DNA of 64,000 bases from Acidobacteriota bacterium (GTDB lineage: Bacteria > Acidobacteriota > Aminicenantia > UBA2199): positions 13,818-77,817 of the forward strand of contig JBDLJQ010000001.1 in the NCBI GenBank assembly GCA_039714255.1, in the 5' to 3' direction. Numbering within the stretch: the stretch's first letter is position 1; each line of letters begins with the position of its first letter. The position numbers were made by a program, and so were the translations under genes. Below, piece by piece: positions 16,772 to 59,270 of this stretch. Under the pieces are notes generated by a model. It ran no database searches and was not told where the DNA came from. It saw only the letters and a list, made by a program, of their open reading frames with translations.

Positions 16772-17054
16772 ATCCCATTTATACCAGTTAACCATCAAAT
16801 TTTCAATTTCTGCTTTGCCGGGAACTTTATCACCTGTCCCCTTTACCAAGCATTCAGCTTCCAGCCAAAAAATAAATCCGAAATTCGAATATCGAAGCAC
16901 GAAACAAATAATAATGACAAAAATACAAATGATCCAAACAAAACAGGAAATTATCTTTTGTTTCAGATTTCGAACTTCGTGCTTCAAATTTTAAATCCTT
17001 TTTTTATTATTTTCTACATGGAAATGTTTGTTGTGTTTTAGTAGAATTCTAAAC

Positions 17055-28359: not shown

Positions 28360-29079
28360 ATGAAAAAAAAGATATTAATAATACTTTTTCTTTTTATCTC
28401 ATTATCCCTTCAGTCAATAGATTTTCCCGAACTTAAAGGGAGGGTAAATGACTACGCAGGCATTCTGGATCCCACTGAGGAAAATAACCTTGAGCTGCTT
28501 CTCAGAGACCTTGAAAATAAAACTTCCGCCCAGGTTGTTCTTCTTACCATAAAGTCGCTGGAAGGTAATACAATAGAAGATTATTCCATAAGGCTCACCG
28601 AACAGAAAGACTGGAAAATAGGACAGAAAGGCCTTGATAACGGTGTGATCCTTTTGATATCAATGGCAGAGAGAAAACTCCGGATAGAGGTGGGTTACGG
28701 GCTTGAGCCTTCACTTACAGACCTGAAAAGCAGTTATATCATAAGAAACCTGATAGTCCCGAAATTCAAGGAAGGGGACTACTATGAAGGTATTCTGAGA
28801 GGTATAGCCCAGATCTCCGGAATTATCACAAAAGAATCTGATATTTCACGGGAAGACCTGAAACAATTCACGAAAAAAAAGAAAAAAAGTATCCCCTGGC
28901 CATTCATCATTTTCATAATTGTGTTTTTTATCCTGCCGATGTTCTCAAAAAACAAGGGGGGCGGCGGTTCGATCTTCTGGGGCGGCGGATTCGGAGGAGG
29001 TTCTTCCGGTGGCGGATTCGGAGGATTTTCCGGCGGTGGCGGAAGTTTCGGAGGAGGAGGTTCTTCCGGTGGCTGGTGA
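28360..29079 (+). CDS. TPM-domain protein (YgcG-like) with a C-terminal TM and a glycine-rich tail
   Basis: VNDYAGIL...QVVLLTI...GVILLISMAERKLRIEVGYGLE. Tail GGGGSIFWGGGFGGGSSGGGFGGFSGGGGSFGGGGSSGGW, encoded by a 21-nt DNA repeat (28993-29013 and 29053-29073). Confidence 0.75.
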   Translation: MKKKILIILFLFISLSLQSIDFPELKGRVNDYAGILDPTEENNLELLLRDLENKTSAQVVLLTIKSLEGNTIEDYSIRLTEQKDWKIGQKGLDNGVILLISMAERKLRIEVGYGLEPSLTDLKSSYIIRNLIVPKFKEGDYYEGILRGIAQISGIITKESDISREDLKQFTKKKKKSIPWPFIIFIIVFFILPMFSKNKGGGGSIFWGGGFGGGSSGGGFGGFSGGGGSFGGGGSSGGW

Positions 29080-29120
29080 TCAACCGCTTAAAAGAGATTC
29101 CGGCGGAATAATAAATCTAC

Positions 29121-29759
29121 ATGTCCGAAACAGCTCCTTATGAAACTGCAGATACAGTTGACAGGTATGAAGCCTGGTTTGAAAATAATATACCGGCATA
29201 CAAATCGGAATTACTGGCAGTAAAAGAGCTTTTACCGGAAAATAAGACCGGGATCGAGATCGGTGTCGGGACAGGCCGGTTTTCCGCACCTCTGGGAATA
29301 AAGATCGGGATCGATCCTTCAAAAGAGATGGGTTCCCGGGCCAGAAAAAAGGGGATCCATGTGATCAGAGGAGTTGCTGAATCTCTCCCTTTAAGAAACA
29401 GTTCAATTGATTTTTTATTGATGGTGACGGTAATCTGTTTCCTGAAAGACATTAAAAGATCTTTCATGGAGGGATTCAGAGTTTTAAAACCCGGTGGTTA
29501 TTTCATAACAGGGTTTGTCGACAGGAACAGCATTATCGGAAGATCATATTCGGGGAAAAAAGATAAAAGCACCTTTTACAGCGCAGCAGAGTTTTATTCA
29601 CCTGATGAAGTCAGGAGACTTCTCGCTAAAACGGGATTTGGTAACTTTTCCTTTGTCCAGACCCTCTTCGGTAAACCTGATGAGATCAAAAAACCACAAA
29701 AATTTAAAAAGGGATATGGAGAAGGATCGTTTGTGGTTTTAAGAGGCATCAAACAATAA
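29121..29759 (+). CDS. class I SAM-dependent methyltransferase
   Basis: Motif I GIEIGVGTGRF and post-I/II pattern LKPGGYFI. Confidence 0.8.
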   Translation: MSETAPYETADTVDRYEAWFENNIPAYKSELLAVKELLPENKTGIEIGVGTGRFSAPLGIKIGIDPSKEMGSRARKKGIHVIRGVAESLPLRNSSIDFLLMVTVICFLKDIKRSFMEGFRVLKPGGYFITGFVDRNSIIGRSYSGKKDKSTFYSAAEFYSPDEVRRLLAKTGFGNFSFVQTLFGKPDEIKKPQKFKKGYGEGSFVVLRGIKQ

Positions 29760-35318: not shown

Positions 35319-38264
35319 TTATTTTATGGTGATCTCGTCGGCGAAGATCCATGCCTTTCCATCATATTGATAACCCTCATGCCCTTGAGGGCATTTACCG
35401 ATATTCTTACCTACTATTCTGATATACCTTCCTTCTGCCTTTAATTTATCAACTTTGAATTCTTTAATAACTGAACCCTGCTTCTTAAAAGAAATTGTAT
35501 TTTTTACCCTGCCGGCCCTCTTATAATCTTTTCCATTTTCAGATATGAAGAAGTCAACAAATTCCGGTATAAATATCCACGATTTAATATCCTGCAGAAA
35601 TGAAATTTTAATGCCATCTATCTCCTTAACCTTTTTCAGATCAACCACAACATCCAGGTTTACGCCCTGATAACCCTGCCATCCTCCGGTCTTAAAATCA
35701 TTACCCCCTTTTAAACCGTCAATAAGGGCATTATCACCACCTGCCCTGTAAAGTTTGCTGTATTTTGTATTAAGCCTGATCTCCTTCCCCCGGGGTAGTT
35801 TAGAATATACAGATGTTATAACCCTGCTTTTTTTCCCTTCTTTTTCTGTATAGAACTTTATTTCTGATGATTTGCTGATCTTAAATGGATTTTCATAGAG
35901 AAGAAATTTATCTTCCCCGTTGATTGAATAGTAGATTTTTCCATTTTCTTCAGGGGATTTCAACTCAAGTGAAAAATCTCTATCAAATGATTTCTTTGAT
36001 CTGTTTGAATATGGATTCATTATGATCTGATTATCCTTTATTGCCGAAAATGGCAAATCAGCTCTATCTAATAAGAGGTTTTTATTTGGTGTAGAACTCA
36101 TATAAAATGTCAGGGTCCCCCCTGCCATTATATCTTTATGCTGAATATAGAGTTTTTTGTAAGATTTTCCATTGAGCATGACTTTCCTGACATAATAATT
36201 GGCATCAGAAAGCCCTTCCGCCCTTATTTTAAATTTGTTTCCATTCTCAAGGTTCAGACAAGCTTCTTTAAAAGAGGGCGTTCCTAAAACATACATATCA
36301 CTTCCCGGAACCACCGGATAAAAACCAAGGGTAGAAAAAACATACCAGGAGGACATCTGCCCGCAATCTTCGTTCCCGCAAAGCCCCGCAGGCCCTGTTT
36401 TGTACATACCTTCAACTATTGCCTTCACTTTTTCCCGGGTTTTCCAGGGAGCGCCGGCAAAGGAATATAAATATGCAATATGATGGCTCGGTTCATTTCC
36501 ATGGGCATACTGGCCTATCAATCCGGTAATATCAGATTGTTTTCTTCCCGCCATTTCAGAATCCTCTGAAAAAAGATCATCCACCATTTTTATATATTTT
36601 TTTTCCCCTCCCAAAAGTTCAATATGTCCTCTGATATCATGGACAACCGCAAAATTATACTGCCAGGCATTTGCCTCGGTAAAATGAAAATTAACCTCCT
36701 TTGGATTGAAGGGATCTATCCATCCGCCGTTCAACTTCGGCCTGAAAAACCCTGAAGACGGGTCAAAAATATTCTTATAATATTGTGCTCTTTTAATATA
36801 TTTTTTGAAAATTCCTTCATCTGATATTGCTTTTGCAAATAAAGCGATACACCAGTCATCATAAGCATACTCAAGGGTTTTTGATATTGATTCCGACCCT
36901 TTATCTCCCGGAATATACCCATATTCTTTATATTGTTTAAGCCCCCTTTTATCAGATTCGGCACTGAAAGTCATTGCCTTCAGTGCTTTTTTTGTATCAA
37001 AACCGGTTATTCCCTTAATATAAGCATCTGCAATAACCGAGACACTATGATAACCGATCATTGTATCTGTCTCATTTGCCGAAAGTTCCCACACGGGAAG
37101 TTTGCCTCCCTGTTCATATTGTTTTAAAAAAGTATTAATAAAATCCAGGGTACGTTCTCTCTCAATTATTGTAAAAAGGGGATGGGTTGCCCTGTAAGTA
37201 TCCCAGAGTGAAAAGAGTGTATAATAATCAAATCCATCTCCATTGTGAACTTTAAGGTCCCTTCCCCTGTATCGGCCGTCAACATCCATATAAAGATTGG
37301 GATTTAATAACGAATGGTACAGAGCTGTATAAAAGATCGTCTTTTTTGATCCATCACCTGGGACACCACTGATATGAATTTTGTTAAGTGATCTTTCCCA
37401 GCTTTTATCAGCTTCATCACGAATTTTTTCAAAATCCCAATCAGGTATCTCTTTTTCCAGATTTTTCCGGGCTCCGTTAATATCTACCGGGGAAATACCC
37501 ACTTTAACAAGAATTTCATCACCTTTTTTCAGATCAAAAGTAAAATATGAAACAAGATTATTCCCTTTTGCCACTCTCAGATTTTTAATTATTTTTTTAT
37601 TTAATGATATACCGGCCGATTTGAATGGTTTTGAAAATTTTGCCACAAAATATACATGCTGCTCATTTGCCCATGAGTGTGATATCCGGTGCCCTTCTAT
37701 CTCATTATTACTAACGATCTTTAAATATGAGTCTAATACCTTGTCACGGTGTTTAAGGTCAAGAACAATATGAGGATTATTTGAACTGGTAAATTTATAT
37801 TTATGAAATCCGGCCCTCTTTGTAACAGTTAATTCAACTCCGATATTAAAATCCTTCAATAGAACTGAATAAAATCCCGGGCGTGCTTTTTCATCTTTAT
37901 GAGAAAAACGTGACCTGTATCCCGAATCCGGATCCTTTTTTGTACCGGGCATAAGTTTAACTTTACCGTTTGATGGGATAAACAGGATATCACCATAATC
38001 AAGACATCCTGTCCCACTGAGATGGGTATGGGAAAATCCGATAATTGATCTGTCGGAATAATGATATGCAGAACACAGGTCCCATCCCTCAAGCCCTGTG
38101 TCGGGCCCCAGCTGGATCATCCCGAAAGGGAGTGAGGGGCCGGGGTATGTATGGCCATGAGCGCCTGTCCCTATAAAGGGATCAACGTAAGAAGTTTTTT
38201 TTTCCGTGGCAGAAAAAATAATAAAGGGAAACAAAAAGATAATTATAATATTTTTAAAAGTCAT
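35319..38264 (-). CDS. GH92 family alpha-mannosidase with C-terminal carbohydrate-binding (discoidin/F5-8 type C-like) extension
   Basis: YVDPFIGTGAHGHTYPGPSLPFGMIQLGPDT is the GH92 N-terminal signature. 981 aa with a signal peptide. Confidence 0.9.
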   Translation of the reverse strand: MTFKNIIIIFLFPFIIFSATEKKTSYVDPFIGTGAHGHTYPGPSLPFGMIQLGPDTGLEGWDLCSAYHYSDRSIIGFSHTHLSGTGCLDYGDILFIPSNGKVKLMPGTKKDPDSGYRSRFSHKDEKARPGFYSVLLKDFNIGVELTVTKRAGFHKYKFTSSNNPHIVLDLKHRDKVLDSYLKIVSNNEIEGHRISHSWANEQHVYFVAKFSKPFKSAGISLNKKIIKNLRVAKGNNLVSYFTFDLKKGDEILVKVGISPVDINGARKNLEKEIPDWDFEKIRDEADKSWERSLNKIHISGVPGDGSKKTIFYTALYHSLLNPNLYMDVDGRYRGRDLKVHNGDGFDYYTLFSLWDTYRATHPLFTIIERERTLDFINTFLKQYEQGGKLPVWELSANETDTMIGYHSVSVIADAYIKGITGFDTKKALKAMTFSAESDKRGLKQYKEYGYIPGDKGSESISKTLEYAYDDWCIALFAKAISDEGIFKKYIKRAQYYKNIFDPSSGFFRPKLNGGWIDPFNPKEVNFHFTEANAWQYNFAVVHDIRGHIELLGGEKKYIKMVDDLFSEDSEMAGRKQSDITGLIGQYAHGNEPSHHIAYLYSFAGAPWKTREKVKAIVEGMYKTGPAGLCGNEDCGQMSSWYVFSTLGFYPVVPGSDMYVLGTPSFKEACLNLENGNKFKIRAEGLSDANYYVRKVMLNGKSYKKLYIQHKDIMAGGTLTFYMSSTPNKNLLLDRADLPFSAIKDNQIIMNPYSNRSKKSFDRDFSLELKSPEENGKIYYSINGEDKFLLYENPFKISKSSEIKFYTEKEGKKSRVITSVYSKLPRGKEIRLNTKYSKLYRAGGDNALIDGLKGGNDFKTGGWQGYQGVNLDVVVDLKKVKEIDGIKISFLQDIKSWIFIPEFVDFFISENGKDYKRAGRVKNTISFKKQGSVIKEFKVDKLKAEGRYIRIVGKNIGKCPQGHEGYQYDGKAWIFADEITIK

Positions 38265-39386: not shown

Positions 39387-40521
39387 CCTGTCCCCTCTTT
39401 AATGTCAGAATAGAAACAAAGGTTATAAATATCACAGAAGCCAGGGGGATAAGAAAAGTTAAGGTAACAGAACGGTCGGCAATCATACCCATGAAGAATG
39501 GAATTATTGCACCGCCTACTATTGCCATTACCAGCAACCCTGACAACTCATTATTCTTTTCCGGAAACTTATCCACAAGGATGGAAAAAATAAGCGGGAA
39601 AATATTTCCAAATGCCAGTCCTGTTAAAAATATTGAACCTATTACAACAAACTTAATTTTAATAAATAACCCCAGTATACCTAAAACGGAAAAGATCGAT
39701 GTTAATAAAAAGAATTTTGAAGGAGATATCCAGTTTAATATAATTGAGCCCAGAAGCCTCCCGATCATAAGAGCAAAGAAAAAGAATCCGATACTCAGAG
39801 TTGCCAGCGATTTTATATCAAGGTTGAACAGATCGTGAAGGTAAGTTGCTATCCATGAATTTATCCCGACCTCCGCACCTACATATAGAAAAATCCCGAA
39901 AACCATCATAAAAATATATGGGTCGCGTAAAAGTGCAAAGCTCGATCTTATACTTGCCCTCTCCTCTTTTTCCCCGCTTTTCTCTTTTATCCTGAAAAAG
40001 AAGATAAGAAAAAGTGTAATAGCTGTCAGGAAAGCATAAAGTGGAAAAAGATCTTTCCAGTTTTTCAGGATCACGAGCCCTATCAGGAATGGCCCCGCAA
40101 GAGAACCTATTGCCTTAATGAACTGGGCAAAAGTCAGATTCCTCGAAAAATTCCCCTCACTGGAAACCTCTCTCATAACAGGATTACCTGCAACCTGCAG
40201 GACTGTGATTCCGGAACCTACCAGAAATATTGATAAAACCAGGAGATAAAAACTTGAGAGAGAAATAACAGGGATCATAAATCCGATAAGTACCACAATT
40301 AATCCCAGCAATAAAACAAACCTTTTCCCTTTTCTATCAGAAAGAACTCCAAAGGGTACGGAAAATATACCATATGCCATAAACCCTACAAATGGCAAAA
40401 GCCCTGCTATGGTTTTTGATATTTCAAACTCTTCTCTGGCAAAAGCAACCAGAGTGCCCACAATATCTCCAAAACCCATTATAAAGAATACAAAAAACAC
40501 AGAAAATACTCTGATCCTCAT
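39370..40521 (-). CDS. MFS transporter (sugar porter, FucP/glucose-galactose-like)
   Basis: 383 aa, about 12 TM segments, and the DRKGKR loop motif between TM2 and TM3. Confidence 0.8.
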   Translation of the reverse strand: MRIRVFSVFFVFFIMGFGDIVGTLVAFAREEFEISKTIAGLLPFVGFMAYGIFSVPFGVLSDRKGKRFVLLLGLIVVLIGFMIPVISLSSFYLLVLSIFLVGSGITVLQVAGNPVMREVSSEGNFSRNLTFAQFIKAIGSLAGPFLIGLVILKNWKDLFPLYAFLTAITLFLIFFFRIKEKSGEKEERASIRSSFALLRDPYIFMMVFGIFLYVGAEVGINSWIATYLHDLFNLDIKSLATLSIGFFFFALMIGRLLGSIILNWISPSKFFLLTSIFSVLGILGLFIKIKFVVIGSIFLTGLAFGNIFPLIFSILVDKFPEKNNELSGLLVMAIVGGAIIPFFMGMIADRSVTLTFLIPLASVIFITFVSILTLKRGQDGLQK

Positions 40522-40605
40522 TTTTACCTCACTTATTTCAATTTATTAAAATTTAAGTTTAAATAAAATTCAAAAGTATATCAATATCTAAATAGTTTAG
40601 ATTAA

Positions 40606-40625
40606 AAAAAAGTGCCTGTCCCCAT
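40606..40625 (+). repeat. direct repeat copy 1a (aaaaaagtgcctgtccccat)
   Basis: Identical 20-mer at 40776-40795. The 18-nt core is also at 58953-58970 and 59247-59264. Confidence 0.95.
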
Positions 40626-40775
40626 CCCATGTGGTTGGCTCTCGCCGTCATCTGCAACGCTTCCCGCTACGGATGTTATCATCCGCTTAACGCTGCTGGC
40701 TGCGGAGCGATCGGCATTCGAGCCGCTCCTGTAGTGCCCGCTTTAGCAGAAGGACGGCTGCGCCAAAATTGAAAG
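40626..40775. ncRNA. candidate structured ncRNA, or a TIR-bearing miniature element (GC-rich island). Family unknown and strand undetermined.
   Basis: 89 of 145 bases are G+C over 40621-40765, against AT-rich flanks. Long-range helix or TIR between 40637-40655 and 40746-40764. Hairpins at 40670-40685 and 40704-40729. No SD-preceded ORF. Confidence 0.3.
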
Positions 40776-40795
40776 AAAAAAGTGCCTGTCCCCAT
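40776..40795 (+). repeat. direct repeat copy 1b (aaaaaagtgcctgtccccat)
   Basis: Perfect copy of 40606-40625, 170 nt downstream. Confidence 0.95.
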
Positions 40796-40810
40796 TTTGT
40801 TATTATAATA

Positions 40811-40856
40811 TTGCAAAGAAAATTTTATTGTGTTACGATATTTTATTAAATAGCAC
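40811..40856 (+). promoter_or_regulatory. putative nik operon promoter (TTGCAA-17-TACGAT) overlapped by a candidate NikR operator (GTGTTAC-N13-ATAGCAC)
   Basis: TTGCAA at 40811-40816 and TACGAT at 40834-40839. GTGTTAC at 40830-40836, then 13 nt, then ATAGCAC at 40850-40856, which is 5 of 7 matches to the GTAACAC half-site as I recall it. Lies 28 nt upstream of the first nik gene, and nikR is encoded at the other end of the operon. Confidence 0.35.
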
Positions 40857-40883
40857 TGCCAGACAGATTTTCGGGAGGATCAG

Positions 40884-41351
40884 ATGAATATGTTAAAAAA
40901 CTGTTCCCTGTTTATTTTATTTTTTCTGTTCTATTCACTCATCTTTTCTCATAGCATAACCTATAAAAATATCAATGGCGGTATTGGCCTGCAGGTTAAT
41001 TATGACAGCGGAGATCCTGTTTCCGAAGCTGATGTTCAAATATTTTCCCCCACTGACAGAGAATTGATATTTCAACATTTATCGACAGATATAAACGGCA
41101 GGTTTCTTTTCTATCCTGATAAAACAGGAAAGTGGAAAATTAATGTAAATGATGGAATGGGACACGGGCTTGTAAAAGAGATCATAATAGAAAATTTACA
41201 AACAAAAAAAATATCAGAGACAGAACATCCGGAATATAACAGATTTCACAAAATAGTGATCGGAGTTTCAATTATTTTCGGTCTTACAGGAATACTTTTT
41301 TTCCTGTCTGCAAAGAAATATTTAAAACGGAGCAATAATGCACATCCCTGA
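40884..41351 (+). CDS. putative periplasmic Ni/Co-binding accessory component of the ECF importer (NikK/DUF4198-like beta-sandwich with C-terminal TM)
   Basis: Signal peptide, then a short beta-rich domain (DVQIFSP...INGRFLFYPDKTGKWKINVNDGMGHG), then a TM anchor. GGAGG RBS. Overlaps the cbiM start. Confidence 0.5.
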   Translation: MNMLKNCSLFILFFLFYSLIFSHSITYKNINGGIGLQVNYDSGDPVSEADVQIFSPTDRELIFQHLSTDINGRFLFYPDKTGKWKINVNDGMGHGLVKEIIIENLQTKKISETEHPEYNRFHKIVIGVSIIFGLTGILFFLSAKKYLKRSNNAHP

Positions 41352-43314: not shown

Positions 43315-43734
43315 TTATTGCAGGTCTGACCCCGTGGAGGTCATAATAAGTTTCCCGTGTTTTGTTCCACGTGTACTTGCCAACTGGTCGGTGATCTTTT
43401 TAATTTCCGAACTTTTTCCCTTTAGAATTATAACCTCGAGGCAATTGTGGTGATCTATATGAACATGGGTTGTTGACCGGATAACATCAAGGTTCTCATG
43501 CTGAATATTGTTAAGGATATTAGATAATTCATTCTGATGATGATCATATACCAGGCTGAAAACTCCAACAGTTTCTTTATCCCCGTCGCCCCATTCTTTA
43601 GATACAAGCTCTTCACGAATAAGGTCTCTGATGGCCTCGGAACGGTTTTTATATCCCTTCCCTTCTATAAGGGTATCAAATTTTTTTAAAAGATCAGAAT
43701 CAAGTGAAACACCGAACCTTGTAACTTTTGACAT
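43315..43734 (-). CDS. nikR: nickel-responsive regulator NikR (RHH + ACT-like metal-binding domain)
   Basis: RHH N-terminus (TRFGVSLDSDLLKKFD) and a His/Cys cluster HVHIDHHNCLEV. 139 aa. Confidence 0.9.
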   Translation of the reverse strand: MSKVTRFGVSLDSDLLKKFDTLIEGKGYKNRSEAIRDLIREELVSKEWGDGDKETVGVFSLVYDHHQNELSNILNNIQHENLDVIRSTTHVHIDHHNCLEVIILKGKSSEIKKITDQLASTRGTKHGKLIMTSTGSDLQ

Positions 43735-58949: not shown

Positions 58950-58976
58950 AATAAAAAAGTGCCTGTCCCCTTTATT
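58950..58976 (+). repeat. direct repeat copy 2a (aataaaaaagtgcctgtcccctttatt)
   Basis: Identical 27-mer at 59244-59270. Shares the 18-nt core with the 40.6-kb locus. Confidence 0.95.
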
Positions 58977-59051
58977 AAGCTTTCAGCTAAAAGAAGAATA
59001 TGTATAAGGTGAGGGGCGAGAGGCTAATGGCAAGAGGAAAAGCAATTTTCT

Positions 59052-59080
59052 GAATTCTAATTAAAGTGCATTTCCCTATA
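59052..59080 (+). repeat. possible degenerate third copy of the locus-2 repeat
   Basis: gaattctaattaaagtgcatttccctata compared with gaattcaataaaaaagtgcctgtccccttta. The gaattc prefix is shared, and aaagtgcatttccc matches aaagtgcctgtccc at 12 of 14 positions. Confidence 0.3.
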
Positions 59081-59243
59081 CTCAGTCACTTCTATATAGA
59101 TATAAAAAGAATGGCGCAACCGATTATCTCTTTTGCGGATGATGAGGAAGTTTTGAGAATGTCGAGAAACGACGAATACTTCAGCTGGGAAAATGAGAAC
59201 ATTTTCCGCGGTAGCAAAAGGGATATCGGTGATAGCCATTTGA

Positions 59244-59270
59244 AATAAAAAAGTGCCTGTCCCCTTTATT
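59244..59270 (+). repeat. direct repeat copy 2b (aataaaaaagtgcctgtcccctttatt)
   Basis: Perfect copy of 58950-58976, 294 nt downstream. Confidence 0.95.

Follow-up and report, generated by a model that had tools for sequence, protein, structure and literature searches.

A 64,000-nt stretch of an Acidobacteriota genome (lineage Aminicenantia; contig JBDLJQ010000001.1), referred to here as the window, contains a G+C-rich island of 150 nt bracketed by two perfect direct repeats of 20 nt. The island lies between divergently transcribed genes, as stated in the preliminary description of this DNA: to its left is a gene for a major facilitator superfamily (MFS) transporter on the - strand, and to its right, on the + strand, is a metal-uptake operon encoding a protein of 155 amino acids (aa), CbiM, CbiQ and an ABC-ATPase. 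That description had considered the island as either a structured RNA or a miniature mobile element flanked by an unusually long target-site duplication. The present analysis points elsewhere. The bracketing 20-mers are very probably two same-strand solo copies of the terminal repeat of a TIRtron, a Y1/HUH transposase gene set within terminal inverted repeats, and the best overall explanation, to which we assign a probability of about 60%, combines solo TIRtron repeats with foreign DNA captured at a resident repeat site. The relevant features are as follows.

40606..40625, + strand: left repeat copy, A6-GTGCCTGTCCCC-AT, putative solo terminal repeat; exact match, lineage-specific at this position and present in an independent Logan contig
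40626..40775, no strand assigned: 150-nt insert of foreign composition (58.7% G+C); from its composition and fold, with no homologue and no counterpart in the syntenic relatives L130 and L131
40637-40655 / 40746-40764: imperfect closing stem of the island; from sequence and predicted fold
40670-40685 and 40704-40729: inner hairpins of the island; from sequence and predicted fold
40776..40795, + strand: right repeat copy, the resident ancestral site; decayed orthologous copies in L130 and L131
58953..58972, + strand: third copy, left member of a second same-strand pair; sequence match
58973..59246, no strand assigned: 274-nt insert between the second pair, host-like at 37% G+C, with no Pfam match and absent from relatives
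59247..59266, + strand: fourth copy, identical to the third over 27 nt (AATAAAAAAGTGCCTGTCCCCTTTATT); sequence match
16832..16859, + strand: partial copy, CCTGTCCCC then TTTACCAAGCATTCAGCT; resembles the right flank of the 58953 copy

Repeat copies in the window

The bracketing 20-mer, AAAAAAGTGCCTGTCCCCAT, is found on the + strand at 40606-40625 and again at 40776-40795, confirming both the perfect identity and the period of 170 nt that had been reported. No match to it within 3 mismatches was found in 100 dinucleotide-preserving shuffles. A recount likewise reproduced the earlier G+C figure exactly (89/145, or 61.4%, for 40621-40765). Over the full 150 nt between the repeats, G+C amounts to 58.7% as compared with 37.6% in the whole window, and only 0.09% of 150-nt windows are equally G+C-rich. 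Just two other stretches reach 55% G+C: positions 28893-29131, where a 27-nt unit with many GGN codons (GGCGGCGGATTCGGAGGAGG...) is repeated in tandem, and positions 38021-38212 within a 981-aa open reading frame (ORF) at 35319-38264. The imperfect inverted termini of the island and its two hairpins are present in the sequence as described, and the closing stem and inner hairpins also appear in the predicted minimum-energy fold of either strand. An inverted-repeat tool returned no arm pair at the termini because these imperfect arms contain an indel.

A mismatch-tolerant search of the window revealed that the 18-mer core of the repeats, AAAAAAGTGCCTGTCCCC, recurs twice on the + strand, at 58953 and 59247, some 18 kb from the island, where it brackets an A+T-rich insert of 274 nt with no relation to the island. 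These two further copies change how the direct repeats are to be understood. Since the same core stands at independent loci, it cannot have arisen as the footprint of one insertion, and the 20-mers are copies of a pre-existing dispersed repeat rather than a target-site duplication. Beyond the motif, the partial copy at 16832 agrees with the right flank of the 58953 copy at 24/27 positions over the aligned 27 nt. The TTTACCAAGCATTCAGCT segment at 16832 shares 15/18 nt with what follows the 58953 copy on its right, a likeness that suggests a longer repeat subfamily in the source genome.

In total, the 64 kb hold four perfect copies and one partial copy, all of them intergenic, and all three motif loci lie between divergently transcribed genes. 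A solo copy in an Aminicenantes genome (L060) is also located between divergent gene starts. Each copy in the window ends in ...CCCC followed by T or A, with a local signature: the two copies around the island (locus 1) read CCCCAT and the other copies CCCCTTT. No inverted partner of the motif was found in the window within 2 mismatches. All five copies are on the + strand, although the number of independent loci is small; genes are concentrated on the minus strand, where ORFs of 200 aa or more cover 43 kb as against 11 kb on the + strand, and the minus strand is also the G-rich one, with a G-C skew of -0.11 on the + strand.

The 274-nt insert of the second pair (locus 2) contains a degenerate motif-like stretch near 59063 and an ORF of 45-60 codons that ends at 59248, one base before the A-run of the right motif. 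By eye this ORF had resembled the C-terminus of a Y1 transposase, an assignment that was withdrawn after a hidden Markov model (HMM) of the transposase family described below found no Y1 remnant in the insert. The broader idea that the island or the locus-2 insert is a decayed Y1 gene was also set aside, with only weak tblastn matches and nothing from the family HMM on six-frame fragments of the window.

The motif in other phyla and its Y1 transposase gene

The 18-mer was scanned against a collection of species-representative genomes, where it occurs at no fewer than 117 loci (at least 136 occurrences) in at least 8 phyla; about 17 would be expected by chance, as estimated for the size of the collection. 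The matches listed are concentrated in certain genomes, namely Collinsella species, Desulfoscipio geothermicus, a Planctomycetales metagenome-assembled genome (MAG), an Acidobacteriota MAG, two Aminicenantes MAGs and several Clostridia, and copy numbers reach dozens per genome in some of them. Throughout the matches listed the 12-nt core is identical, and the flanks differ by lineage. Within 932 kb of these loci (L001-L117) plus the window, the core variants GTGCCTGTCCCC and GAGCCAGTCCCC number 201 and 55 copies, respectively. Mixed forms of the 12-mer account for only 8 copies, so that positions 2 and 6 switch together. One variant can pair with the other's complement except at two positions, which form A.A or T.T mismatches, and Desulfoscipio and the Planctomycetales element described below show this mismatched X/Y arrangement. 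Among 143 adjacent pairs, 84 are inverted with GGGG outward, 22 show the opposite inversion and 37 are on the same strand; same-strand pairs that enclose 100-500 nt also occur in Collinsella, Chthoniobacteraceae and one Lachnospiraceae genome. A scan of a viral collection showed the motif to be absent from viral contigs, no Rfam matches were obtained in 16 loci of other phyla, and in the searchable literature the motif string returned only irrelevant primer matches.

The motif or its GTAG variant, in inverted orientation, brackets a conserved IS200-like Y1/HUH gene of about 220 aa in six lineages. Four loci with a Y1 gene were reached through the motif. In an Acidobacteriota locus (L114), the ORF between two inverted copies spaced 700 nt apart contains HVTQRGN...NHIHLVV...YVEQNSVRAGL and matches Pfam Y1_Tnp at 6.8e-12 and, as its best NCBIfam match, REP_Tyr_transpos at 58 bits. 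Y1 homologues in L035 and L063 are bracketed likewise, and in L079 a Y1 gene stands near motif pairs. A reverse test, for which loci were chosen by protein alone, gave the same picture: the genes from Omnitrophota (L136), Aerophobetes (L137) and Thermodesulfobacteriota (L138) were bracketed in 3/3 cases, by aaaaGGGGACAGGCTACttttt upstream and aaaaaGTAGCCTGTCCCCtttt downstream, which is the same site with GTAG replacing GTG. A search with the L035 protein finds 1483 related proteins at E<=1e-20, and these are 57-64% identical across WOR-3, Omnitrophota, Aerophobetes, WS2 and Thermodesulfobacteriota. Family proteins match Pfam Y1_Tnp with E-values of 6.8e-12 to 4.7e-16. With the NCBIfam model for REP-associated tyrosine transposases (RAYTs; REP, repetitive extragenic palindrome) they score 58-83.5 bits against a curated cutoff of 80, which is passed by two of the three proteins used for the reverse test.

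A system of this kind is known. Di Nocera (2013) introduced the name TIRtron for RAYT-like genes flanked by terminal inverted repeats and the name TIRYT for their enzymes (PMC3733652). Many TIRtron terminal repeats have GGGGWSAS in common, an 8-nt consensus drawn from 26 genes. Some of them belong to dispersed families whose members are single, dimeric or grouped, Acidobacteria and Rhodopirellula being among the examples (PMC3733652). In the classification of Quentin (2018), TIRYTs correspond to TnpA-Y1 subclass 2.1 (Bertels group 1), whose signatures are an HuH motif of NHVH or NH[YF]H, W[EQ] and Y..NP at a median length of 238 aa (PMC6006769). The reverse complement of the window motif starts with GGGGACAG and fits the GGGGWSAS consensus, and the motifs NHFH, IWQGRY and YVEGNP of the L035 protein match the subclass 2.1 signatures (Table 1, PMC6006769). 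On the strength of these two agreements, the 20-mers are taken to be solo TIRtron terminal repeats. The repeat core, A(4-6)-GT(A)G-CCTGTCCCC-T(3-6), is that of the TIRtron terminal inverted repeat, and the TIRtron itself is a single Y1/HUH gene of about 220 aa (TIRYT; TnpA-Y1 subclass 2.1-like) within GGGGACAGGC(T)AC...GT(A)GCCTGTCCCC.

In some genomes the site travels inside a different kind of element. In the Planctomycetales genome CAZEEJ01 (L005, L017, L024, L029, L082 and others) and in a Phycisphaerae genome (L072), an alignment (A1) reveals a miniature inverted-repeat transposable element (MITE) of about 155 nt whose terminal inverted repeats measure 17 nt (GTACGTGTTTAGCGTCC) and whose target duplications, such as GCAATCCC, CATCGCGT and CTTGCTAC, measure 8 bp. 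Its interior carries the Y1-type sites GGGGACAGGCAC-T6 and A6-GAGCCAGTCCCC. The MITE copies are 68% identical overall, yet both 18-mers are invariant. By its sequence, the target duplication implies that a MITE carrying Y1 sites would have been mobilised by a DDE-type enzyme. At 5665-6057 of L035 a host ORF runs into the left terminal repeat (...QQKGTGTFF...), with the repeat supplying the C-terminal codons of the neighbour; KKVPVP, GTGTFF and like translations recur in spurious ORFs of G+C-rich loci.

Several other roles for the motif were considered and rejected. A sigma-54 promoter (GGCAC-N-TTGC on the minus strand) has a fitting spacing in the Desulfoscipio Y variant only and not in the copies of the window, Collinsella or Planctomycetota. 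An intrinsic terminator would require a partner arm that is missing; the terminator scan was negative, and every window copy has divergent gene starts on its two sides. CRISPR-like and integron attC arrays would call for a longer repeat and other spacings, and R/L boxes are lacking. A stem-loop that presents the 12-mer as its loop holds for solo copies of the Collinsella type, and the window copies are unstable in this form. Rfam offered no known RNA family for either the motif or the island.

History of the locus

A fully syntenic locus (L130; 71% identity), found via homologues of the 155-aa gene, has the order GH92-ROK-MFS / 155aa-CbiM-CbiQ-ABC-NikR, and a second syntenic locus (L131) is 79% identical. 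Neither relative has the island or the left copy. Both carry a single, partly decayed motif exactly at the position of the right copy (TGCCTGTCCCT / ccttgggTGCCTGTCCCTtttt in L130; ACCTGTCCCCATT / aattctACCTGTCCCCATTG in L131) and so represent the empty sites by which, according to the preliminary description, an insertion could be recognised. The L131 motif shares the local CCCCAT with both locus-1 copies. From its position in the relatives and from this signature, as against CCCCTTT at locus 2, the right copy is the old, resident site in the promoter region, whereas the left one looks like a duplicate of it. Gain of both the island and the left copy in the lineage of the window only can be proposed with good confidence from this alignment.

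Relatives at the second pair are 68-73% identical and have MetH as the upstream gene where the window has an M28 peptidase. Their intergenic region of 111-113 nt contains neither motif nor insert, and about 55 kb of close relatives (L133-L135) contain no intact motif. The second pair (58953-59266) thus appears to sit at a synteny breakpoint. Since the relatives at locus 2 lack an intact motif, the repeat family would be patchy and recently active in the lineage of the window.

The junctions of the island were checked independently in Logan contigs of sequencing run SRR27843389 (L118, L119), which join the left junction to the MFS gene and the right junction to the 155-aa gene. Both junctions are real, as the independent assembly agrees. 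At the left junction the haplotypes differ by a 5-nt indel and one single-nucleotide polymorphism at the motif boundary, the window reading CCCCAT-CCCATGT-GG and the Logan contig CCCCAT-AT-GG. The Logan contigs end within the island at about 40665 and restart at about 40738, both at a CCCGCT hexamer (40663-40668 and 40737-40742), and a variant without the central 74 nt of the island may therefore co-exist.

Upstream of the 155-aa/CbiMQO operon, at 40829-40860, a block of TGTGTTACGATATT.TA..AAATA.CACTG is nearly invariant in all four relatives aligned (window, L130, L131 and L132; alignment A2). A gene for a NikR-type regulator is located downstream (43315-43734 on the minus strand of the window; RHH_1 plus NikR_C in L130). 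The conserved block is probably the NikR operator mentioned in the preliminary description.

Origin of the island and comparison with known systems

G+C-rich islands in A+T-rich genomes are often RNA genes, and the extreme composition and closed multi-hairpin fold seen here would suit a small structured non-coding RNA gene that by chance lies between two repeat copies. The island folds with z = -2.23 (+) and -2.65 (-), with 4/200 shuffles folding as well on each strand; once the repeats are included the values become -1.55 and -1.96. A signal that is equal on both strands is, however, what DNA-level palindromy gives, and it is modest. Rfam 15 yielded 0 matches at the gathering threshold over the whole window and only noise at E<=10 over 40450-40950, so the covariance-model comparison proposed earlier came back empty. 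No sigma-70-like promoter or intrinsic terminator serving the island was found by scanning, neither of the flanking transcription units includes the island, and it is missing in the syntenic relatives. Homologues were not found in the collections searched: the ten matches of a single 20-mer probe in JGI metagenomes lie in G+C-rich coding sequence and are at chance level, no match came from the plasmid and viral collections, and a blastn comparison with the window and roughly 1 Mb of fetched loci recovered the island only. An RNA gene is improbable on this evidence, and the structured-RNA proposal is not supported. Nor is the suggestion that the island is a fragment of a protein gene from a G+C-rich organism, as an exhaustive HMMER search of 1.8 billion proteins with its single open frame (the other five contain stops) gave three marginal, fragmentary matches, the best at 1.9e-5 over 19 residues. 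An assembly loop or chimera at the repeated 20-mers had also been raised. Repeats are classic sites of misassembly and the Logan contigs do break within the island; even so, the finding of both junctions in independent contigs, each continuous with the correct flanking gene, the distinct haplotype at the left junction and a 20-mer that is shorter than typical assembly k-mers make an artefact scarcely credible.

Two further explanations accept the DNA as real and differ on how it was assembled. One envisages three independent events, in which two solo repeats inserted 170 nt apart on the same strand around separately acquired DNA. Collinsella offers a precedent, with same-strand copies in successive intergenic spaces around small host-like pieces, and locus 2 is itself host-like in composition. 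The shared CCCCAT of both locus-1 copies and the resident L131 copy, as against CCCCTTT elsewhere, argues for duplication of the resident site, and the island abuts the left core directly with no 3' T-run. Requiring three rare events within 190 nt, this history is highly improbable. The main alternative, which is itself unlikely, is that the locus is the remnant of a larger element or of recombination or template switching between motif copies by non-Y1 machinery. Candidates are a site-specific integrase for which the motif served as att core, with a later internal deletion, and illegitimate recombination with motif-bearing foreign DNA. Perfect 20-nt direct repeats around DNA of foreign composition are the classic attL/attR picture, and the motif is common to possible G+C-rich donor phyla. 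The loss of about 52 nt of ancestral sequence, the synteny breakpoint at locus 2 and the Logan breaks at CCCGCT hexamers, which hint at internal deletion variants, also fit such a history. Against it, no integrase or other mobile-element gene adjoins the island, a larger version of the element was not found, and the only documented partner of the motif is the Y1 gene.

Solo TIRtron repeats with foreign DNA captured at a resident site therefore provide the preferred account. We regard the island as what appears to be an orphan insert of foreign composition; it is probably passive cargo from a more G+C-rich source rather than a gene, and as such would have no function. How it was captured is a more tentative matter, and the action of a Y1 enzyme, although the likeliest of the routes considered, is a possibility that we rate below even odds. 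In this scheme, a Y1-type enzyme would cut directly 3' of the motif (C|T or C|A) and stay on the 5' end, and the free 3'-OH would be joined to another cut end. A segment running from just after one motif through the next motif would be pasted after the resident motif, and the product would be motif-cargo-motif in direct orientation with no true target duplication. The joints would fall at the 3' edge of the motif, where the two haplotypes differ. Since G+C-rich phyla share the site, the donor could plausibly be foreign. IS200/IS605 enzymes recognise both ends on one strand, which places those ends in direct orientation. Enzyme action at the junctions and the putative cut sites would follow by analogy from REP-associated Y1 enzymes, which cleave single-stranded REP DNA at a C|T or C|A step on the 5' or the 3' side of their site. 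They remain attached to the resulting 5' end, which they then ligate to a free 3'-OH whose last base is C, with strand transfer observed in vitro (PMC8266576).

Several observations weigh against this account. The solo copies of the window, as single-stranded DNA, fold at -0.3 to -0.5 kcal/mol, which is no better than shuffles and unlike the hairpins that characterised Y1 enzymes recognise; flank complementarity across all copies is slightly higher than in permuted controls (4.0 vs 3.44). The inverted pair dominates in other genomes (84 vs 37 direct), and no Y1 gene was found in the 64-kb window by tblastn or by the family HMM on six-frame fragments. The island folds better than chance, unlike the prediction for passive cargo. 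The gain was also untidy: the window lacks about 52 nt that separate the conserved left block from the motif in L130 and, in part, in L131. To our knowledge, no biochemistry exists for subclass 2.1. The searches of Quentin (2018) did not find REP-like sequences for this subclass (PMC6006769).

The outcome for the locus is that a false lead has been removed: the perfect 20-nt duplication is not the footprint of an insertion, and no evidence speaks positively for a new family of RNAs. Of the miniature mobile element proposed earlier, the link to mobile DNA stands and the 20-nt duplication falls, since the same core occurs elsewhere and the island is single-copy. What remains is a site that brackets apparently recently gained, polymorphic foreign DNA and of which relatives keep the empty form. 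More broadly, these results bear on the spread and role of REP-like repeats and single-copy Y1 enzymes. In at least 8 phyla, a large Y1 clade keeps a near-invariant site of 18-20 nt, which can multiply within a genome to dozens of copies or ride in a DDE-type MITE. The window thereby offers a defined substrate, in the form of the motif with a candidate cleavage (C|T or C|A) immediately beyond its 3' end, together with a defined natural product. As a long shot, the motif-island-motif arrangement and the second pair could be a snapshot of a Y1 clade that moves DNA bounded by same-strand sites across phyla, or the island could have been recruited as a structured RNA between divergent promoters. 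Were the snapshot true, the segment between sites would be excised as a single strand and pasted after a resident site, with foreign DNA captured in the process.

The arrangement can be compared with four kinds of known system. As in a MITE with a target-site duplication, the island is small and non-coding and has imperfect inverted termini and flanking direct repeats. The flanking repeat, however, belongs to a family found elsewhere and is not a duplicated unique target, and multiple copies would be expected of a MITE, whereas no second copy of the island was found in the window, the roughly 1 Mb of loci or the collections scanned. A genuine MITE with the motif inside does exist in Planctomycetota, with its 17-nt terminal repeats and 8-bp duplications. 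Elements of the IS200/IS605 family and their non-autonomous derivatives (PATEs) share the enzyme superfamily, the recognition of ends on one strand in direct orientation and insertion 3' of a short specific sequence with no target duplication, which is the logic proposed here for motif-cargo-motif. They differ in that the island is single-copy, has no demonstrated subterminal hairpins at its ends and has no tnpA or tnpB nearby.

REP sequences, with their BIME and REPIN assemblies and the RAYT enzyme (TnpA-REP), come closer. They too are short, extragenic, multi-copy repeats around a single-copy Y1 gene (REPtron), and the GTAG tag appears in the variant ascertained through the protein (GTAGCCTGTCCCC). 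Two subtypes alternate in orientation, X and Y here like Y and Z in E. coli, and two family proteins pass the NCBI RAYT cutoff. By contrast, the conserved 12-mer is not palindromic and the window copies form no stable hairpin; a canonical REP has a 5' GT[AG]G at the foot of a palindrome of 20-40 nt, whereas the window copies read GTGC. REPIN-like inverted doublets are absent from the window, and inverted pairs make up 84/143 in other genomes. REP sequences are normally lineage-specific, whereas this core is common to several phyla.

The closest match is the TIRtron and its TIRYT enzyme. In both, a Y1/HUH gene lies in inverted repeats whose outer end fits GGGGWSAS, the protein has the motifs NH[YF]H, W[EQ] and Y..NP, and the repeats are dispersed as single, dimeric and grouped copies, which have been reported in Acidobacteria and Planctomycetes. 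The difference lies in the site, which here is 18-20 nt long and near-invariant across at least 8 phyla as opposed to the published 8-nt consensus, and in the window, which has solo same-strand copies only and no TIRYT gene in its 64 kb. The repeats are already explained by the known TIRtron/TIRYT system, to which the source locus and genome are newly added. What is new relative to the published record is the cross-phylum invariance of the 18-20-nt site and the motif-cargo-motif arrangement.

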